A stretch of DNA of 64,000 nt from assembly GCA_029008875.1 (NCBI GenBank), contig JAQXJP010000003.1:6710-70709 (forward strand), written 5' to 3'. This stretch comes from Lachnospiraceae bacterium (GTDB lineage Bacteria; Bacillota; Clostridia; Lachnospirales; Lachnospiraceae). The translations under genes and the position numbers were made by a program. Each line of letters opens with the position of its first letter. The first letter of the stretch is position 1. Below the pieces are notes generated by a model. That model was not told the origin of the DNA, searched no databases, and saw nothing but the letters and a program-made list of their open reading frames with translations. Positions 8,346-60,669 of this stretch are shown here, in pieces.

Positions 8346-9316
8346 TTTTTGATGAAAGTTATTTTGCCGAAGAAGAACGAGATGGATTTGTTATCTCATC
8401 AATGATGAAGCGCGTGTGGGCGGCACAGATTTGCGTGCTTGAGGAGGTTCGTCGTGTGTGCGAGATGCTTCACATTCCATTCTTTGCAGATTGGGGAACC
8501 TTACTTGGAGCTGTGCGACATCATGGCTTTATCCCATGGGATGACGATATGGATATATGTATGTTGCGCAAGGATTATATGCGCTTTTTGGAGGCGGCAC
8601 CGGAAATTCTAAAGCCTCCTTTTGAAATAAAAAGCGTGTACAACGATCCCACCGATGATATAATAAAAGCAAGAATCATTAACGGGCGGCATATGAACTT
8701 TGAACAGGACTTTTTGGAGCAGTTTTATGGATGCCCATATGTGGTGGGAATTGACATCTTTCCGATTGATAACATTACCGAAGATCAAAAGCAATTAGAG
8801 GAACAGATACGGACGTTGCGCTTTGTCTTAAAGGCAGCAGCCAGTGTTCCGGAGGAACCGCCATATGAGGACGATGTACTTGAGCTTTTGCAGCAGATTG
8901 AGAATACCTTCGGATTTGCAATAGATTACAACAATCGTCCGGCACATGAGCTAAAGAAGCTCTATGATATTCTCTGCAGTTGGTATATGCATGAGGATAC
9001 TAAGGAAGTGACCTCGATGATTGATTTGGCCAATGGCTGGGATTATCATGCAAAGAGGGCATGGTTTTCTGAGATTATTGAGATGCCCTTTGAGAACACC
9101 ACAATACCAGTACCGGCGGGTTACGATGGTCTGCTTTGCATTAAGTATGGAAAAGATTATATGACACCGAGACAGGTCAGCTCACACGAGTATCCATTTT
9201 TCAAGGAACAGATGCTTGGCCTAAAGGAGGTTATGGAGGAAGAATTCCAGACACAGTTGTCCGAAGAACAAATGTATCAGCTGATTGAAATGAAAGCGTT
9301 GGGGACAGCTTTCTAA
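8339..9316 (+). CDS. licD: LicD-family phosphotransferase
   Basis: WGTLLGAVRHHGFIPWDDDMDI, GIDIFPID, FE...PVPAGYD motifs. Confidence 0.88.
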   Translation: MLIFDESYFAEEERDGFVISSMMKRVWAAQICVLEEVRRVCEMLHIPFFADWGTLLGAVRHHGFIPWDDDMDICMLRKDYMRFLEAAPEILKPPFEIKSVYNDPTDDIIKARIINGRHMNFEQDFLEQFYGCPYVVGIDIFPIDNITEDQKQLEEQIRTLRFVLKAAASVPEEPPYEDDVLELLQQIENTFGFAIDYNNRPAHELKKLYDILCSWYMHEDTKEVTSMIDLANGWDYHAKRAWFSEIIEMPFENTTIPVPAGYDGLLCIKYGKDYMTPRQVSSHEYPFFKEQMLGLKEVMEEEFQTQLSEEQMYQLIEMKALGTAF

Positions 9317-9330
9317 AACAGGAGGGACAA

Positions 9331-10680
9331 ATGAAAAAGGTCATTACCTATGGAACATATGATTTATTTCATGAAGGTCATTACAAACTGTTAGAGCGGG
9401 CAAAGGCATTAGGGGATTATCTGATTGTTGGGGTAACAACCGAGCATTTTGATGAAGCCAGAGGCAAGGTGAATGTGGTGGACTCCATTATGGAACGTAT
9501 TGAAAATGTTCGTAAAACCGGATTTGCCAATGAGATTATTGTGGAGGATCACGAGGGTCAGAAAATTGAGGATATTCAAAAATATGGGGTGGATATCTTT
9601 GTGCTCGGCTCTGATTGGAAAGGACATTTTGACTATCTAAAGCCATACTGCGACGTCGTATATCTGGAGAGAACGGCGAATGTCTCCTCTACTATGATTC
9701 GCAAGGAGAAATTTCCAATCGTAAGAGTGGGAATCGTTGGTACAGGGAGAATTGCACCGAGATTTGTTGCTGAGGCAAAGTATGTCAGTGGAGTACAGAT
9801 AGAGTGTGCATACAATCCCGAGAAGATTAGTGCATTGCGCTTTGGACAGCGGGAGGAAATCCCTGTATATAGTAATGACATGGAGGAATTCTGGCAACGC
9901 ACGGATGCCATCTATATCGGATCTCCGAATGAGACACATTATACGTATGCGAAAGAGGCTCTTCTTCATGGGAAACATGTATTAAGTGAGAAGCCACTGG
10001 CATTTACGCATAGTGAGACAATGGAATTGTATCAGATGGCAAAGGATAAAGGCCTTGTGCTGATGGAGGGAATAAAAACCGCATACTGTCCGGGATTTCA
10101 ACAGCTAATTAATGTGGCCAAGAGTGGAAAAATCGGGGAAATCCGAGATATCGAAGCCTGCTTTACAAGACTTGCGACAGATGGCTCCAGAGAGCGGTCG
10201 GACGCAAAATATGGCGGTTCCTTTTTAGAGTTTGCTCCTTATACGCTGCTCCCCATTTTTAAGCTATATGGAACTGAATATGAGGATGTTCAGATTGACA
10301 GTATTCTGGGGGAGGATGGCATTGACCTATATACAAAGATTCAACTCCGTTATGCGAATGGTATGGCGACAGCCAAGATGGGAGTCGGAGTAAAGTCAGA
10401 GGGGGAGCTTGTGATTGCAGGAACGGAAGGGTACATCCTTGCGCCGTCTCCGTGGTGGCTGACGCATAAGTTCGACGTGCGAAGAGAGGACCCGACGGAC
10501 ATTGAGCATTTTGAACCATCTTTTCAGGGAGATGGTCTGAGATATGAGATCAGCGAATTTGTCGGAAAAATAAATGGTGCCGGAAGAAAAGACTACAAGC
10601 TTACCGAGGAAGAATCAATTGCAATGTCAAGAATCGTGGAGTTGTTCATGAGTAAACGAAGCGGAGATAGGATGAAATGA
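9331..10680 (+). CDS. TagD-like cytidylyltransferase fused to a Gfo/Idh/MocA oxidoreductase
   Basis: N-terminal ITYGTYDLFHEGH (HxGH) and YLERTANVSST; then VGIVGTGRIA and HVLSEKP. Confidence 0.88.
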   Translation: MKKVITYGTYDLFHEGHYKLLERAKALGDYLIVGVTTEHFDEARGKVNVVDSIMERIENVRKTGFANEIIVEDHEGQKIEDIQKYGVDIFVLGSDWKGHFDYLKPYCDVVYLERTANVSSTMIRKEKFPIVRVGIVGTGRIAPRFVAEAKYVSGVQIECAYNPEKISALRFGQREEIPVYSNDMEEFWQRTDAIYIGSPNETHYTYAKEALLHGKHVLSEKPLAFTHSETMELYQMAKDKGLVLMEGIKTAYCPGFQQLINVAKSGKIGEIRDIEACFTRLATDGSRERSDAKYGGSFLEFAPYTLLPIFKLYGTEYEDVQIDSILGEDGIDLYTKIQLRYANGMATAKMGVGVKSEGELVIAGTEGYILAPSPWWLTHKFDVRREDPTDIEHFEPSFQGDGLRYEISEFVGKINGAGRKDYKLTEEESIAMSRIVELFMSKRSGDRMK

Positions 10681-53393: not shown

Positions 53394-54581
53394 ATGGCAA
53401 AGGCTAAATTTGAAAGAACAAAAGCACATTGTAATATTGGTACCATCGGTCACGTAGATCATGGTAAAACTACTCTTACAGCTGCAATCACAAAGGTATT
53501 GGCTGAGAGAGTTGCTGGTAACGAGAAGGTAGACTTCGAGAACATCGATAAGGCTCCGGAAGAGAGAGAGCGTGGTATTACCATTTCTACCGCTCACGTT
53601 GAGTACCAGACAGAGAAGAGACATTACGCACACGTTGACTGCCCGGGACATGCTGACTACGTTAAGAACATGATCACCGGTGCTGCTCAGATGGATGGTG
53701 CTATCCTCGTAGTAGCTGCTACTGACGGTGTTATGGCTCAGACAAAGGAGCACATCCTTCTGTCTCGTCAGGTAGGTGTACCTTACATCGTTGTATTCAT
53801 GAACAAGTGTGATATGGTTGATGATCCGGAACTTCTTGAGTTAGTAGAGATGGAAATCACCGAGCAGTTGGAAGAGTACGATTTCACCGGATGCCCGATC
53901 ATCCAGGGTTCTGCTCTTAAGGCTCTTGAGGATCCGATGGGACCTTGGGGAGACAAGATCATGGAGCTTATGGATACCGTTGATTCTTATATCCCGGATC
54001 CTCAGCGTGATACAGATAAGCCTTTCCTTATGCCTGTAGAGGACGTATTCACTATTACCGGACGTGGTACTGTAGCAACCGGTAGAGTAGAGCGTGGTAC
54101 CCTTCACTTGAATGAGGAACTTGAGATCGTTGGTATCAAGGAAGAGACTCAGAAGACCGTTGTAACCGGTATCGAGATGTTCCGTAAGATGCTTGACGAG
54201 GCTCAGGCTGGTGATAACATCGGAGCACTTCTTCGTGGTATCAACCGTGACCAGATCGTTCGTGGACAGATCCTTGCTAAGCCGGGAACAGTTACCTGCC
54301 ACACCAAGTTTACTGCTCAGGTTTACGTATTGACCAAGGACGAAGGTGGACGTCATACTCCATTCTTCAACAACTATCGTCCTCAGTTCTACTTCAGAAC
54401 AACAGACGTTACCGGTGTATGTAACTTACCGGCTGGTACTGAGATGTGCATGCCTGGCGATAACATCGAGATGACCATCGAGCTCATCCATCCGATCGCT
54501 ATGGAGCAGGGTCTTACATTCGCTATCCGTGAGGGTGGACGTACTGTAGGTTCAGGCCGTGTAGCTCAGATCATCGAGTAA
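53394..54581 (+). CDS. tuf: Elongation factor Tu
   Basis: [31 protein letters not shown]. Confidence 0.99.
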
Positions 54582-54582
54582 T
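54528..54582 (+). repeat. Left attachment-site copy (tuf 3' end)
   Basis: CGTGAGGGTGGACGTACTGTAGGTTCAGGCCGTGTAGCTCAGATCATCGAGTAAT. Confidence 0.9.
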
Positions 54583-54615
54583 TTCAATTGATAGTGTCAC
54601 AAAGCTAGTAAAATC

Positions 54616-54652
54616 AAGGCTTTCCGTGTTTTAACACGGGGAGCCTTTTTTT
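54616..54652 (+). terminator. Terminator after tuf (element-supplied)
   Basis: AAGGCTTTCCGTGTT / AACACGGGGAGCCTT plus T run. Confidence 0.8.
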
Positions 54653-54679
54653 CGTTTGTACGTAAAAAATTTTGATTAG

Positions 54680-54698
54680 TGGCTCCAAAATGGCTCCA
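54680..54698 (+). repeat. Subterminal arm-type repeat, left
   Basis: TGGCTCCAAAATGGCTCCA (TGGCTCCA twice, 11-bp period); identical copy at 59824. Confidence 0.8.
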
Positions 54699-54872
54699 TG
54701 ATACGTGGTGATACTCGTGTTCGTCAATCTTGAATAGGTCGAACAATTAGCAATACTTAAATTTTATTGACAGAATGATGGATCAAGGGGACCTCGTTGA
54801 GTGGTTCCTTTTTTCGTCATACAGTACTATAATAGATTTGTTTAGAAAATAGGAATATTATGAATAGTTGAA

Positions 54873-54921
54873 AGGGACTGTTGCAAAAGTAGCTAATTGC
54901 GCTGCTTATACAACAGTCCCT
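54873..54921. repeat. 11-bp perfect inverted repeat
   Basis: AGGGACTGTTG ... CAACAGTCCCT. Confidence 0.7.
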
Positions 54922-55250
54922 CTTAATATTAGTATAGACCATTATATTTTGGAAGTGGATATTTTTTCATACTCTTTACACCGTGCAAGAAAAGCTTTGG
55001 CAGATGAGGTTAAGTGCAGGCGTGACGACAGGTATGCGTAATTTGCATATAACCGGGCTGCAGTATCGAAAATGGAAGCGCTTAAGTACTTGCTGAGTAT
55101 GAGTTTCACGAAGATTAATAAAGAACTAAATTTATGAAAAATAATATTGTTGAAACTTTTTATCCTAATACTTCATCAAACAATATGAGGATAGAAATTG
55201 TATGCGATTTTGTTTGGATAAAATAGAACCTATGACATAGGGTATCACAT

Positions 55251-55973
55251 ATGAAAGGAGAAAGCACGGAGTACATGAGTAAGAATATTGCAGTATTTAA
55301 TAATACCACAGGCGTAGCAGAAAGTATGAAATCTTTGTTTGCGGGAGAGGGATTGAGTATGATAAAGGCTGCCTCGCTGAATGAACTATTATTGCTGATA
55401 AAACACGACAATATCCACTTGATTCTTATGGATTTGGAATTAGAAGGAGGTGGCTTGGGGTATGGTATAGAAATAATTCAACTTATTAGGAGGTGTACTG
55501 TTATTCCCGTAATAGTGATATCAGCACAGACTGCAGAAACTGCTAAAATTATGTCATTGAATGTAGGGGCAGATGATTATGTAACAGCTTATGACAGTCC
55601 ATTGGTTTTATTGGCAAGAGTAAAAGCGCAGTTGCGTAGATATATAGAATTAAATACTCTTTTTGAAAGTTTTGGGAATATATATAGAATAGGTGATTTA
55701 GTATTAGATGATAATATCCATGCTGTAATGGTTGGGGGCAAAAATGTTAAAATGACACCTATAGAATATAAAATACTACGTCTGCTGATACAGGAGCAAG
55801 GAAAAGTTTTGACCATTAATGAGATATATGAAAGGATTTGGCAAATGCAAGCACTTGATGCTAAGAATATTATTGCGGTACATATTCGTCATGTTCGTGA
55901 AAAGATAGAAAAAAATCCCAAGGAACCTAAATATATAACTGTAGTTCGTGGCTTAGGATATAAAGTTGGATAA
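55251..55973 (+). CDS. OmpR-family response regulator, orphan and atypical
   Basis: LILMDL, GADDYV, winged helix MTPIEYKILRLL...IAVHIRHVREKIE...VRGLGYK; no kinase nearby. Confidence 0.88.
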   Translation: MKGESTEYMSKNIAVFNNTTGVAESMKSLFAGEGLSMIKAASLNELLLLIKHDNIHLILMDLELEGGGLGYGIEIIQLIRRCTVIPVIVISAQTAETAKIMSLNVGADDYVTAYDSPLVLLARVKAQLRRYIELNTLFESFGNIYRIGDLVLDDNIHAVMVGGKNVKMTPIEYKILRLLIQEQGKVLTINEIYERIWQMQALDAKNIIAVHIRHVREKIEKNPKEPKYITVVRGLGYKVG

Positions 55974-56079
55974 TGAAGGAGAGAGATGCTGTCAGAATGT
56001 GAAAGGAAATGCTGGTGACATTGTTGCCATGATGCTTTTATGATATGATAGAAAAAAGGACAAATGACGGGGTGATGAC

Positions 56080-56583
56080 GTGCAGGTTTTAGGATTTATG
56101 AAGAAAAAGAGTAATGAAGAAATCGTGGAGGAAGTAATATTGGAACAATATAAGCAGTATTATCGATTGGCATATAGCTATGTTCATAATGACGCTGATG
56201 CTGAAGATATTGTGCAAAACGGTGCATATAAAGCCTTGCGTAGTAGCAATACATTACGAAATCCTGAATATGCAAAGAATTGGGTATATCGTATTATGTT
56301 AAATGAGATATTTAACTTTTTACGACAGCCCAAAGCGGTGTCATACGAATATATGCAGGAAGAAATGGGGATGGAGGCAGAACATGTTGAAGACACATAC
56401 ACAGATATTGATTTGCAGACAGCTTTGGATTCTCTTCCGGAACAGGACAAGGCAATTATAGTGATGAAATTTTTGGAGGACAAAAAACTGGAAGAGATAG
56501 CGGATATCCTCAATGAAAATATAAATACGATAAAAAGCCGTTTATATCGCAGTATGAAAAAGCTTCGTATCAGATTAGAATAG
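56080..56583 (+). CDS. ECF RNA polymerase sigma factor (SigV-like)
   Basis: YRLAYSYV...DAEDIVQ, WVYRIMLNE, EIADIL...TIKSRLYR. Confidence 0.9.
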   Translation: MQVLGFMKKKSNEEIVEEVILEQYKQYYRLAYSYVHNDADAEDIVQNGAYKALRSSNTLRNPEYAKNWVYRIMLNEIFNFLRQPKAVSYEYMQEEMGMEAEHVEDTYTDIDLQTALDSLPEQDKAIIVMKFLEDKKLEEIADILNENINTIKSRLYRSMKKLRIRLE

Positions 56584-56602
56584 GCGAAATGGAGAAAAAA
56601 TT

Positions 56603-57535
56603 ATGAAAGATAACATTATTAATTTTGAACAGCAATGTGAACAGTCGAAGAAGGGCTTACACTCCTTGCAGAAAGAATATATGCAACCAACGATGTCTGA
56701 AGAACAGCTAAGCAGGCTGAAAATGAAAATGGAAGAGGCAAAATGCGAAAATCGTAAAGAAAGAAGAAATGCACGTATTACAAGAATTGCTGCAACAGCG
56801 GCAGCATTGGTAATTGCATTTATAACTTTGCCAAATCTGTCCCCTACCATTGCATATGCTATGGAACAGATGCCGATTCTTGGCCGTTTTGTAAAGGTTG
56901 TAACCTTCCGTAATTATGAGTATGAGGATGAACAGCATAAGGCAGAGTTGGATATTCCTGAAATTGTGATAGATGATCAGCTTCAGGATGAACGGATCCG
57001 AAGTGTATTGGAGGATACAACGAATGAAATGAATTCTGAAATTCAGAAGCTTTCCAATGAATTATTGGATGAATTTGTAAGTTATATGCAGGATGAGTTG
57101 GGATATAAGGAGCTTATTGTTAAGAGTGAAGTTGTGACAACTACGCAGGAGTATTTTACCTTAAAACTGTCTTGTTACCAAAGTGAGGCAAGCGGATATG
57201 AATGGGCTTATTTTTATACCATTGATTTGACTTCCGGTAAGCGATTACAGTTAAAAGATATATTTGCGGAAGGTGTGGATTACATTACTCCCATCAGTGA
57301 AAATATTAAAGAACAGATGCGGAGTCAGATGGAAAAAGATGAAAACATTTTATATTGGTTAGATGATGAAATGGAGGAAATGAATTTTCAGGCTATTACG
57401 GAAGAAACGGATTTTTATATTAACCAAAATAATGATGTGGTAATCTGTTTTAATGAAGGGGACGTGGCTCCTATGTATATGGGAATGATTGAATTTGAAA
57501 TTCCGGCAGAAGTTTTAAAGGAGATCAGAAAATAA
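56603..57535 (+). CDS. RsiV-like anti-sigma factor (DUF4163/DUF3298 type)
   Basis: One TM helix then PNLSPTIAYAMEQMPILG (signal-peptidase-type AxA site), YTIDLTSGKRLQLKDIF, FNEGDVAPMYMG. Confidence 0.82.
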   Translation: MKDNIINFEQQCEQSKKGLHSLQKEYMQPTMSEEQLSRLKMKMEEAKCENRKERRNARITRIAATAAALVIAFITLPNLSPTIAYAMEQMPILGRFVKVVTFRNYEYEDEQHKAELDIPEIVIDDQLQDERIRSVLEDTTNEMNSEIQKLSNELLDEFVSYMQDELGYKELIVKSEVVTTTQEYFTLKLSCYQSEASGYEWAYFYTIDLTSGKRLQLKDIFAEGVDYITPISENIKEQMRSQMEKDENILYWLDDEMEEMNFQAITEETDFYINQNNDVVICFNEGDVAPMYMGMIEFEIPAEVLKEIRK

Positions 57536-57636
57536 TTTGGGGATGAAACGAAAGGCTTTCCGGCGATGGAGAGCTTTTTTGTTTTTAAATATTTTGGTGT
57601 TGAAGTTACATAGAGTAGATAAATATAGTATTTACT

Positions 57637-57665
57637 TGAAACAATTTTATGAGTTGGTACGTCTA
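57637..57665 (+). promoter_or_regulatory. ECF-sigma-type promoter of the lipoprotein gene
   Basis: TGAAAC (57637-42), N17, CGTC (57660-63); matches the SigV/SigW/SigM-type consensus. Confidence 0.6.
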
Positions 57666-57712
57666 AAGGATATAAGAAAATAGGGAAAGCAGTTCCCGGA
57701 AAGAGGTAAGGA

Positions 57713-58105
57713 ATGAGTAAAAAAATATTAATGATGTTAGCTGTTTTAACTGTATGTGCAGGTGTTATGGTTGGATGTTCGAAAGGAAACGGAAAAGAGG
57801 ATGCCAAAACTCCTGTGAGCATAATGCAGAGTGAAGTTATGGAGGAGGAACCGATGCCGCCAGAGAGTGATAAGAATAGTGTAGATGAAGATGTGTCGGA
57901 AGTAATAGGAAAAGTAGACGAAATAAAAGACTTTATGTTTATCATAACGGATGATGATAAGGTTAGTTATGCATTTACTTTTGAAGAGAAGCCGGAAGGT
58001 CTGGATAAGATTGCTGTAGGAGATACAGTACTTGTAACTTATACAGGTACGATATCAGAGGTTGATCCTTTTATGGGGAAGATTCTGTCGGTTGAGAAAA
58101 AGTAA
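57713..58105 (+). CDS. Small lipoprotein, OB-fold-like
   Basis: Signal peptide with lipobox VMVGC; beta-rich C-terminus IAVGDTVLVTYTG. Confidence 0.75.
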   Translation: MSKKILMMLAVLTVCAGVMVGCSKGNGKEDAKTPVSIMQSEVMEEEPMPPESDKNSVDEDVSEVIGKVDEIKDFMFIITDDDKVSYAFTFEEKPEGLDKIAVGDTVLVTYTGTISEVDPFMGKILSVEKK

Positions 58106-58131
58106 GGAAGTTTTAAAAGCGGATAAGATAC

Positions 58132-58233
58132 TTCTTCAGCCTTGTTACAATCGATTCTGAGAAGGTATCCGTTATAATGGTAGATAGCAATGCTGTTGGT
58201 TTGAGGATTGTATTCTGCGTGTACGATTTTCAT
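58132..58233 (-). pseudogene. 3'-truncated DUF6061-like gene fragment
   Basis: MKIVHAEYNPQTNSIAI...GYLLRIDCNKAEE after a GAAAGGA RBS; resembles small genes of Lachnospiraceae mobile elements; the frame then runs antisense into the lipoprotein gene. Confidence 0.5.
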
Positions 58234-58458
58234 GATTGTTATCCTTTCGTTTTTGTTTTAGAGGTAAAAGTCCATGGGCTCATTTTGGACTTGATAATTT
58301 TTTGAAATAAATGTAATAGTCACAAAATGTGATAGTTTTTGCAATGAAAAGCAATATAAAATATTTAAAATAACACAGTTTGTGATATGTTTGGTTGTGT
58401 TGCTACTATCATTGAATAATCCCGTAAATTCAGGCTTTTTAAGCATTTGAATGAGGAT

Positions 58459-58521
58459 TTTGCAACAAAATTGCAAGGCATAATGCTGAATAATGCATGA
58501 TAATGCAAGTTTCAGTAATGC
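58459..58521 (+). repeat. Short phased direct repeats
   Basis: TTGCAA twice at an 11-bp period, then TAATGC at 58481, 58491, 58501 and 58516. Confidence 0.65.
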
Positions 58522-58599
58522 AGCGAATCCAATTTAATAAGATTTTGCATCTAAGGACATTATCCAAGTGAAAACAAGGAAAGTGTCCTTTTTTGTGTT

Positions 58600-58851
58600 G
58601 TGGTCAAAAATTACAGGAAGAATACGATTGCAGAGCTGAAGAATACGATTATCGATCTGAAAGGAAAGTTGGCTGCGGTCACACAGGAACTGGCAGGATA
58701 TAAGTCTGTTCGAAATCAGCTTTATGTATCAGAATTGGAGCAGGAGAATGACTATCTGAGAGGGAAACTTGAGAAGTACAATGCCGTGATTGAGAAGAAT
58801 GATTTGAGGAGATATTTCCGGAAGCCGGCGGAACGAGATAGAGGCAGATAA
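58600..58851 (+). pseudogene. C-terminal coiled-coil fragment resembling MobV/Pre relaxase tails
   Basis: YKSVRNQL...LEQENDYLRGKLEKY..VIEKNDL..YF; no relaxase catalytic domain upstream. Confidence 0.45.
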
Positions 58852-58988
58852 TTATGCTATAAGTGGTAGGGTTCATTAAGATGTAGAGGACGTCACAACC
58901 TATATTAGTGTCGTCCTCCTTATTAATTTCCATTTTTATGGTAATATATATCTGTTAGCTAAATTGAATTTGACGAGGAGGAACAGCA

Positions 58989-59729
58989 TTGATGAATAAT
59001 ATATTAAAAATCGAAACAACATCGTTTTCCTTGCATATCATGGCTATGATATTTATGTTGTGCGACCATTTGTGGGGTACAATTATCAATGGAAATGACT
59101 GGTTGACTTGTATCGGCAGATTAACTTTCCCAATCTATGCATTTATGATTGTTGAAGGGTATTTTCATACAAAAGACTTCAAAAAATATGTGAAACGATT
59201 ATTGCTGTTTGCTGTTGTTTCTGAGATTCCTTTTAACATTGCAATGGGAAGCAGTGTATTTTATCCCATCCATTAGAACGTTCTATGGACATTTCTAATT
59301 GCACTTGGCTTGATTCATTGGAATGAAAAAGTAAAAGAAAACAAACTTTGGAAGCGAATTATAATTGGTATCACAACACTTGCTGTTGCTTATATTGGTG
59401 GAATCATTACCTTTGTAGATTATTATAACGCTGGTATTCTTATGGTACTCACATTCTATTTTTTTAGAGGAAAAATGTGGTGGCATTATCTTGGGCAGTT
59501 GTTGTGTATGTGGTATATCAATATTGAATTGCTTGGTGGGTTTGGTTATGAGGTAGACCTATTCGGCACAACACAATTCATCACAAGGCAAGGATTTGCC
59601 CTGCTAGCATTGATACCGATATGGTTGTATAGAGGGAAGCAAGGATATCATAATAAGATACTGCAATATGGTTACTATGTGTTTTATCCGTTGCATTTGC
59701 TGATATTAGGTGTTCTTAAGTTTCTGTAA
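58989..59729 (+). pseudogene. traX: TraX-family membrane acyltransferase interrupted by one in-frame TAG
   Basis: MLCDH...IGRLTFPI...VEGYFHT...SEIPFN...H*NVLWTF...YNG-like tail FYPLHL; both ORF pieces are in the same frame; TAG at 59274-76. Confidence 0.8.
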
Positions 59730-59823
59730 ATTCCAATATGTCGAACAGATGATACTTTCAGTTTCATAAGAATTGTTATGACAAAAAGATGGACAAATAA
59801 CGATTGATGTGTTAGAGTCTAGA

Positions 59824-59842
59824 TGGCTCCAAAATGGCTCCA
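59824..59842 (+). repeat. Subterminal arm-type repeat, right
   Basis: TGGCTCCAAAATGGCTCCA, identical to 54680-54698. Confidence 0.8.
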
Positions 59843-59945
59843 ATAATTTTGGGAAATAAAAATACATAATGTATATAGTGCCTAAAAACAGCATAAAATC
59901 AATAAAAAACATGGTAGAAGATAGCGACAAAGCCAAAACCGGGAG

Positions 59946-60000
59946 CGTGAAGGTGGACGTACTGTAGGTTCAGGCCGTGTAGCTCAGATCATCGAGTAAT
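59946..60000 (+). repeat. Right attachment-site copy (displaced tuf 3' end)
   Basis: 54/55 identical to 54528-54582; the only difference is synonymous (GAA vs GAG, Glu). Confidence 0.9.
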
Positions 60001-60021
60001 CAAACATTATTCAGTAAATTT

Positions 60022-60054
60022 AAGGCTCCCAAGGTTTTCCTTGGGAGCCTTTTT
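60022..60054 (+). terminator. Terminator after the displaced tuf end (probably the native tuf terminator)
   Basis: Perfect 13-bp stem AAGGCTCCCAAGG / CCTTGGGAGCCTT plus T run. Confidence 0.85.
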
Positions 60055-60095
60055 ACGTGCAGGAATACATCTGCCATTTGATTCCCAATTTGTCA

Positions 60096-60115
60096 CAAAC
60101 GCACGCGTGCGTTTG
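60096..60115. repeat. 20-bp perfect palindrome upstream of a SigA-like promoter
   Basis: CAAACGCACGCGTGCGTTTG; TTGCAA-N17-TATGAT follows at 60121-60149. Confidence 0.8.
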
Positions 60116-60166
60116 AATTATTGCAAAAACACACGAAAAGCGATATGATATTTAGCATTTACAAAG

Positions 60167-60636
60167 ATGATTTCAAATGAAGAAAATCGATTGGGAAGAT
60201 CATTACCTATCAATTCGTTATTAGTTCTATCAGCACTGCAAAACCAGCGTAGATTGACGATTGCAGAAATTGCAGAAGTAACGAATATTGGAGAAATTCG
60301 CGCTAAAGCAGTAGTTGAAAAAATGGTTGAAACCGGTTTAGTGGATGCAAGCGGTAATAATAGGTCACGGTTTTATATACTTAGTTCCAAGGTATATAAG
60401 GAGCAGGATAACATCCTAGGATATGTTCGTCAGACGGGAATTGATGCAGTGAAATATGAAGCTTGGATTATGGAGTTGCTGCAAAAGCAAGGCGGAAAAG
60501 TGACAAGAGACAATGTTGTGGAATTATTAAATGTTACCCCACCACAAGCTTATCGTCTGTTGAAAAAATGTCTGATAAGGGCCGGATTAAGCTTGTTGGA
60601 AATGGACGAGCGGCACATTATGAATTGAATAAATAA
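60167..60636 (+). pseudogene. 5'-truncated, frameshifted C-terminal wHTH part of an ATP-binding transcription-regulator-like gene
   Basis: Two wHTH-like repeats (LTIAEIAEV...KMVETGLV..SG; VTRDNVVELL...AYRLLKK); adding one A to the A6 at 60563-68 gives the natural ending MSDKGRIKLVGNGRAAHYELNK*. Confidence 0.6.
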
Positions 60637-60639
60637 ACG

Positions 60640-60669
60640 CACGATAAACGCACGCGTGCGTTTATCGTG
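60640..60669. repeat. 30-bp perfect palindrome
   Basis: CACGATAAACGCACGCGTGCGTTTATCGTG; shares an 18-bp core with 60096-60115. Confidence 0.85.

Follow-up and report, generated by a model that had tools for sequence, protein, structure and literature searches.

In attP sites of the lambda and Tn916 type, a core is accompanied by arm-type sites, which are bound by the N-terminal domain of the integrase (Int). Among streptococci, integrative mobilizable elements (IMEs), as well as integrative conjugative elements (ICEs), with tyrosine integrases have been described at the 3' ends of rpsI, rplL, rpmG, fda and guaA and at tRNA genes (PMC5357655, PMC4701971). Cis-mobilizable elements (CIMEs) are defined in PMC6323972 and PMC5704250, and CIMEs derived from ICESt1 and ICESt3 reside at the 3' end of fda in Streptococcus thermophilus (Pavlovic 2004; Bellanger 2011, both as cited in PMC5704250). 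Here we describe a 5,363-bp insert at the 3' end of tuf, the gene encoding EF-Tu, in a Lachnospiraceae bacterium (assembly GCA_029008875.1); the window analysed is a stretch of 64,000 nt from contig JAQXJP010000003.1. The insert is in all likelihood a non-autonomous, CIME-type derivative of an IME family whose tyrosine integrase uses the tuf 3' end as its attB. The target lists of PMC5357655 and PMC4701971 contain 0 occurrences of tuf, and the literature searched yielded no description of tuf as an att site.

The repeat at the tuf 3' end and its alleles

The insert is bounded by a 55-nt direct repeat, D1. Its first copy consists of the last 54 nt of tuf, including the stop codon TAA, and one further T; the second copy begins 5,418 nt downstream and is identical at 54/55 positions, the sole mismatch lying at repeat position 6 (GAG versus GAA, Glu either way). 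The insert has a GC content of ∼35%, compared with 45–50% in the flanks, and neither it nor the 55-mer has a further copy anywhere in the 2.63-Mb genome. Each repeat copy is followed by a hairpin with a U run, at 54616–54647 (−22 to −24 kcal/mol, z −4.3 versus shuffled sequence) and at ∼60022–60054 (−30.3 kcal/mol, z −7.9). Direct comparison thus reproduced the repeat, its synonymous mismatch and the spacing given in the initial annotation of this DNA, and each copy has the terminator that had been assigned to it, a strong one in both cases. A perfect 19-nt direct repeat, TGGCTCCAAAATGGCTCCA, occurs ∼100 nt inside either end of the insert.

To find alleles of the locus, we queried public assemblies with the exact sequences of EF-Tu and of the NUDIX protein encoded downstream (comparison loci are given by L numbers). 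Locus L005 encodes an identical EF-Tu, and its tuf runs straight into the terminator that follows the second repeat copy in the window; L005 4742–4945 matches window 59946–60149 at 97% over 204 nt and represents the empty site. The cassette itself was found between tuf and the NUDIX gene in L025 (pig gut) and L027 at 99.5–100% identity, and L024 covers its right half with the same junction. A 5,423-nt Logan contig, L022, was considered as an excised circle and rejected, being a unitig of the cassette bounded by the repeats. An assembly artefact at 59946 is ruled out because these independent assemblies from other samples (L022, L024, L025, L027) show the same structure at 99.5–100% identity. 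L006 carries a different, 3.9-kb cassette between the same two tuf cores, with a 75-aa open reading frame (ORF), SNaCT7 and Abi_2. This cassette is likewise integrase-less and has the motif AAGTTCT-AAAA-AAGTTCT in both arms at equivalent offsets. The duplication is therefore not fixed: close relatives have no insert at the core (L005), the same insert (L025, L027; its right half in L024) or another one (L006).

Integrases linked to tuf and the arms of their elements

An exact 48-mer of the core, scanned across the family with ≤ 3 mismatches, had no match outside the window's own genome because the pattern was too strict. With a degenerate core pattern, applied to one genome per species, we found an attR-type core copy in Candidatus Anaerostipes excrementavium (L015) that is preceded by non-tuf DNA and begins with CGTGA, the left boundary shared by all att copies examined in other genomes. 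A complete IME occupies the 13 kb upstream of this core. It encodes an XRE repressor, a small Xis-like helix-turn-helix protein, a tyrosine integrase in which Arm-DNA-bind_4, SAM_3 and catalytic domains are combined, a Rep of the AAA_25 type, a relaxase of the Mob_Pre type, methylases and a SIR2 protein. Genes for closely homologous integrases stand just behind rpsL-rpsG-fusA-tuf in L020 and in Faecalicatena sp. Marseille-Q4148, whose genome is complete (L021).

We then surveyed one genome from each of 400 Lachnospiraceae genera, obtained ∼30 integrase matches of ≥ 49% identity and examined 20 loci, all in different genera. In each of the 16 with enough upstream DNA (16/16), tuf lies 1–2 kb upstream of the integrase gene on the same strand. 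Tandem arrays were present at four surveyed loci (L034, L041, L045 and L049), and full IMEs were seen in L019, L020, L021 and L034. More than one tuf core occurred in ∼47 of the 292 sampled genera that matched the core pattern at all (a tally from the survey table); the reversed control pattern gave zero hits. The larger tuf-integrated, integrase-bearing relatives predicted by the initial annotation are thus abundant, the 16 testable loci being joined by L019, L020, L021 and L057–L064. With the empty site and the variable occupancy, these tuf-linked integrases bear out its reading of the repeats as attL and attR of an element that uses tuf as attB.

One of these types, IME_A (L034 4708–15840; L057–L064), comprises tuf-specific IMEs of 8–12 kb, whose genes follow the order repressor (XRE), Xis-like protein, Int (355 aa, including an arm-binding domain), Rep (AAA_25), relaxase (Mob_Pre), cargo. 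Among the cargo genes are one of the streptomycin-adenylyltransferase family or, in other copies, an Aminoglyc_resit gene, as well as members of the aminoglycoside nucleotidyltransferase family and genes for a radical-SAM protein and an RlmA-like methyltransferase. Two genera have a 100% identical IME_A integrase, and the exact protein was found in 5,498 blocks of a public assembly index, in several different host settings and frequently as part of tandem arrangements with other elements.

The two ends of the insert are homologous to those of IME_A. Window positions 54400–54731, which include the end of tuf, match L034 4525–4856 and L048 3767–4097 at 84–87% (BLASTN), and the first 100 nt of the left arm are 91% identical to L034; at the right end, window 59750–60000 matches L034 15644–15895 at 91%. 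The homology comprises the outer 149 bp on the left (P' arm) and 196 bp on the right (P arm), at ∼91%, and the interiors are unrelated. The attR junction, CCGGGAG followed by CGTGAAGG, is identical to the IME_A attR junctions of L034, L057 and L061.

Within the P' arm, each integrase subclade has its own tandem 7- to 8-mer with an 11-bp period. Seven such motifs were found (TGATAACA, TGGTTCT, ATGCTTC, TGATACT, TGACAAC, CGGTGCC and TGGCTCC), and they differ between integrase identity groups. Wherever attR could be read, the P arm repeats the motif. TGATAACA occurs in the P arm (attR) of L019 and L056 and in the P' arm (attL) of L020 and L021. The TGGCTCC type is that of IME_A and of the window, where it stands at the same offset (+98). 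As TGGCTCCA, it is present in both arms of L034, L057, L058 and L061, and the TGGCTCCA pair lies at the same P' offset in every integrase-bearing IME_A locus (L034, L048, L057–L064). Repeated motifs thus occur in both arms and co-vary with the integrase, as in arm-type att sites; from this co-variation with the subclade and from their conservation, we infer that the tandem motifs are integrase arm-type sites.

The insert also encodes an OmpR-family regulator, and a direct repeat of 7–8 bp with an 11-bp period resembles the operator boxes of such proteins (7+4+7, Pho-box-like). That the 19-nt repeats serve this regulator is nevertheless very improbable, and we rejected the idea: the identical motif stands at the same offsets in IME_A copies that lack such a regulator, the analogous motifs of other tuf IMEs change with the integrase subclade, and the L006 cassette has a tandem motif yet no regulator.

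Similar sequences were sought beyond the Lachnospiraceae genomes. Scans of viral contigs for the core and for the attR junction gave no match, and a scan for the arm motif returned two unrelated contigs. In one of them, the high-GC IMG/VR phage contig L007, positions 9190–9419 contain TGGCTCCAAAATGGCTCCA and a third TGGCTCCA, no more than 165 nt away from the end of a gene for a 398-aa integrase. The arm motif may have been put to use there independently, or the match may be due to chance; it is a weak lead only. Plasmid database searches with the element and with IME_A gave no match, and the species' core pattern was absent from the JGI metagenomes.

The att copies also indicate how tuf is rebuilt. 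Where hosts of different genera share an IME type, the 300 nt of tuf ahead of the core are 79–93% identical between them, and the core itself is 100% identical. The tuf end at attL therefore comes from the element, in agreement with the restoration of the gene that the initial annotation had proposed. We bounded the crossover by comparing attL and attR in the window and in the L057 and L061 arrays. Core position 6 goes with the P arm (all IME_A attR copies have A there, and the attL of the window and of L061 has G), and positions 12 onward move with the P' arm (L057, L061), which would place strand exchange within positions 7–11 (GGTGG), judging from few informative junctions and presuming no later gene conversion. 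With an exchange between positions 6 and 12, the element would supply the last 13 codons of tuf, the stop codon and a terminator.

In the sister species, G357, a contig (L071, G357:C32, 1–167) opens inside an attR P arm of the CGGTGCC type (ACGGTGCC) and continues into a tuf core of 55 nt. We did not find tuf itself in the G357 assembly, as would fit a contig that breaks off at the repeat.

The status of the insert and its cargo

Pfam scans of the seven main ORFs of the insert revealed no integrase, Xis, Rep or relaxase, and tblastn at E ≤ 10 detected no relics of the Int, XRE, Rep and Mob genes of the IMEs inside it. No tyrosine recombinase or integrase is encoded on the contig that holds the window. 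The best homologue of the tuf-linked integrases in this genome is 40–45% identical and lies on another contig; it is no cognate integrase. The view of an integrase-driven element accordingly holds with one qualification: tuf-specific tyrosine integrases exist in the relatives, and the 5.4-kb insert, which itself codes for no recombinase, would be a non-autonomous derivative and not a self-sufficient ICE or IME.

Two of its ORFs, those for proteins of 130 and 83 aa, belong to no Pfam family, and an unrecognised recombinase could in principle be among them, making the element autonomous; alternatively, the structure could be an artefact of assembly or duplication. Either is scarcely credible. 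The element to whose ends those of the insert are homologous has a canonical tyrosine integrase, the small ORFs are part of a cargo module that is found elsewhere without tuf cores, and the structure is repeated in four independent assemblies. An integron gene cassette was also considered and rejected because neither attC nor IntI is present: no integrase gene accompanies the insert on its contig, and the insert ends in tuf cores with lambda-like arms, not in attC sites.

AttL and attR flank the insert, which has an exact empty site in L005 and att sites related to those of the autonomous IME_A, and which yielded no genes for integration, excision or transfer; these are attributes of a CIME. 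An IME would have its own integrase and a relaxase, an oriT or both; the insert has no integrase, and no Mob_Pre or other relaxase was found. As a CIME-type derivative, it would have arisen when an IME_A-like ancestor integrated through Int-mediated recombination of attP with attB, leaving the displaced native tuf end as the attR stub. The backbone would have been lost later, with a 400-bp equivalent of attP retained. Excision and re-integration would then occur only with TGGCTCCA-type Int and Xis from an incoming IME_A, and transfer from cell to cell only within a tandem composite with an IME_A-type helper.

Several observations weigh against this interpretation. The core of the window follows the host tuf and not the canonical IME_A core, to which it is 78% identical, and the arms have diverged by ∼9% from the currently epidemic IME_A; both would fit long residence. 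The cassette was seen in one species only and always at the same position, the IME_A attP junction pattern was absent from the JGI metagenomes, and oriT was presumably lost along with the relaxase region. The same host-like core, arm divergence and confinement to one species and position would be expected of a dead relic, that is, of an IME that integrated once and decayed in place. Such a relic would now spread vertically or by homologous recombination of the tuf and NUDIX flanks, its att sites being intact owing to the little time elapsed or to the coding nature of the core. Decayed, one-armed relatives do exist (L053, in which the P' motif is lost), and the window's genome holds no helper integrase. 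We consider a relic unlikely all the same. Both non-coding arms are full length and contain perfect, identical 19-nt site pairs for which nothing in the cassette would select, and the unrelated integrase-less cassette of L006, in the same species, is equally two-armed with another motif. The exact helper integrase protein, moreover, is present in the 5,498 assembly blocks mentioned above, on contigs from several hosts. The preservation of two arms in the window element and in L006 is suggestive of continued use, and is not decisive.

A broader picture can be drawn, which we put forward tentatively as somewhat doubtful. The tuf 3' end of gut Lachnospiraceae might be a cassette-exchange platform run by a large IME family of which we found no description. 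Its integrase subclades would have a single core in common while their arm specificities are swapped, would form tandem stacks and would give rise to two-armed miniatures such as the window element and the SNaCT7/Abi_2 cassette of L006. These miniatures would be actively mobilised in trans, parasitic on IMEs which are in their turn parasites of conjugative elements, and the last 13 codons of tuf, an essential gene, would be rewritten repeatedly.

Islands between two tuf cores in which no integrase was seen also occur in other genera. One, of 8 kb (L053), encodes GmrSD, a methylase of the Dam type and two proteins of the MutH family, and the tandem motif on its P' side is lost; another, of 2.9 kb (L055), has an AlbA_2 gene and a methyltransferase gene; for the third, of 11 kb (L054), three ORFs only were scanned.

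The coordinates of the insert, its target and its genes are compiled in Table 1.

Table 1. Features of the tuf locus and its insert, in window coordinates
Feature	Position	Strand	Basis
tuf (EF-Tu, 395 aa), target gene	53394..54581	+	ORF, translation; identical protein on L005, L006 after rpsL-rpsG-fusA
attL core, 55-nt tuf 3' end including stop codon and T	54528..54582	+	Direct repeat D1
P' arm, including element-borne tuf terminator	54583..54731	+	Homology to left end of autonomous IME_A
Putative P' arm-type site pair, TGGCTCCA-AAA-TGGCTCCA, +98 from core	54680..54698	+	Motif conserved in IME_A
OmpR-type response regulator	55251..55973	+	Pfam Response_reg and Trans_reg_C
ECF-type sigma-70 factor	56080..56583	+	Pfam Sigma70_r2 and r4_2
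Putative anti-sigma factor (DUF4179 and DUF3298), 310 aa	56603..57535	+	Pfam
130-aa protein, no Pfam family	57713..58105	+	Conserved beside module in L065, L067, L069
83-aa protein	58600..58851	+	Pfam matches below family cut-offs only
TraX-family membrane protein, broken	58989..59729	+	Pfam TraX on both halves
P arm	59750..59945	+	Homology to right end of autonomous IME_A
Putative P arm-type site pair, TGGCTCCA-AAA-TGGCTCCA, start 122 nt before core	59824..59842	+	Motif conserved in IME_A attR arms
attR core, partial tuf copy, 55 nt	59946..60000	+	D1; junction CCGGGAG, then CGTGAAGG
B' side, resident tuf terminator (∼60022–60054) and leader	60001..60149	+	Directly after tuf in empty-site allele L005

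The cargo consists of a regulator, an extracytoplasmic function (ECF) sigma factor, a putative anti-sigma factor, a TraX-family protein and two small proteins. By eye, the receiver of the response regulator has NN in place of the usual acidic DD pair and lacks the conserved Lys, and it may therefore be phosphorylation-independent. Gene calls in L022, L025 and L027 give the sigma factor a length of 161 aa, equivalent to a start at 56098 in the window. Relatives of the anti-sigma factor are numerous (2,722 found), many of them inside the same gene module. The N-terminus of the 130-aa protein, with VMVGCSKG, looks like a lipoprotein signal in the translation, and the 83-aa protein is possibly a coiled coil, judging by its composition. 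The TraX gene is split by a lone CAG-to-TAG nonsense change at base 59274, which L022 shares at 100% identity; in L024, L025 and L027 it is intact (245 aa), this one difference being the only one found.

Relatives of the regulator/sigma/anti-sigma/TraX/lipoprotein-like module are numerous, with 69–95% protein identity. One copy is cargo of an Int/Rep/NikA IME without tuf cores (L069 2107–12690), and another lies downstream of rpsI (L067 5434–15066), next to a Y1 transposase gene and with MBOAT, GDSL and solute-binding-protein genes. Because it is found behind rpsI and on a non-tuf IME as well, we regard the module as a shuttling accessory module. These findings suggest an ECF-controlled modification of the envelope as its function, and TraX is therefore cargo and not the relic of a conjugation system.

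In this species the interval between tuf and the NUDIX gene is also a defence hot spot (L005 4966–12795; L028; L006 5023–8413). One allele holds a Wadjet-like set (DUF2397, DUF2398, SbcC-like, DUF3323/DUF2399), and another the SNaCT7 and Abi_2 cassette. Downstream of the insert, a perfect 18-nt palindrome, AAACGCACGCGTGCGTTT, occurs twice (60097–60114 and 60646–60663). Its copies flank 60167–60628, where the C-terminal 153 aa are left of an SLFN_AlbA_2/HATPase_c_4/wHTH gene; in L005 this gene is whole and encodes 550 aa. Exactly the segment between the palindromes is missing from L024, L025 and L027, and for this reason we take AAACGCACGCGTGCGTTT to be an insertion or deletion breakpoint, or an operator.

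Relation to known elements

By these findings, an abundant family of mobilizable elements, with defence systems and aminoglycoside-resistance genes among its cargo, has its attachment site in tuf in a bacterial family dominant in the gut. The window element is a clean, natural, two-armed and integrase-less derivative. For annotation, element-borne C-terminal codons and terminators of tuf are to be expected in such genomes, as are contig breaks at tuf.

The insert is a known kind of element at a target that we did not find described. It resembles the ICESt1 and ICESt3 CIMEs in lying between the attL and attR that a tyrosine-integrase element has formed at a conserved gene's 3' end, and in having autonomous relatives in tandem arrays at the same site. 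It differs from them in its target, tuf, in its regulator/ECF-sigma module as cargo and in its mobilisation, which is putative here. A further difference from these CIMEs is that the parent would be an IME with a MobV-type relaxase and no conjugation pore, and not an ICE, so that a helper chain of two elements would be needed. Like the streptococcal IMEs and ICEs, the parent family has the order repressor, Xis, arm-binding Int, Rep, relaxase and cargo, and it enters and restores the 3' end of a gene; unlike them, it resides in gut Lachnospiraceae and targets tuf. Finally, as in the attP of lambda and Tn916, the core is flanked by arms of ∼150–200 bp with repeated motifs in both, and the integrases have the Pfam domain Arm-DNA-bind_4. 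Unlike in those systems, the arm sites proposed here are deduced from conservation and from co-variation with the integrase subclade.

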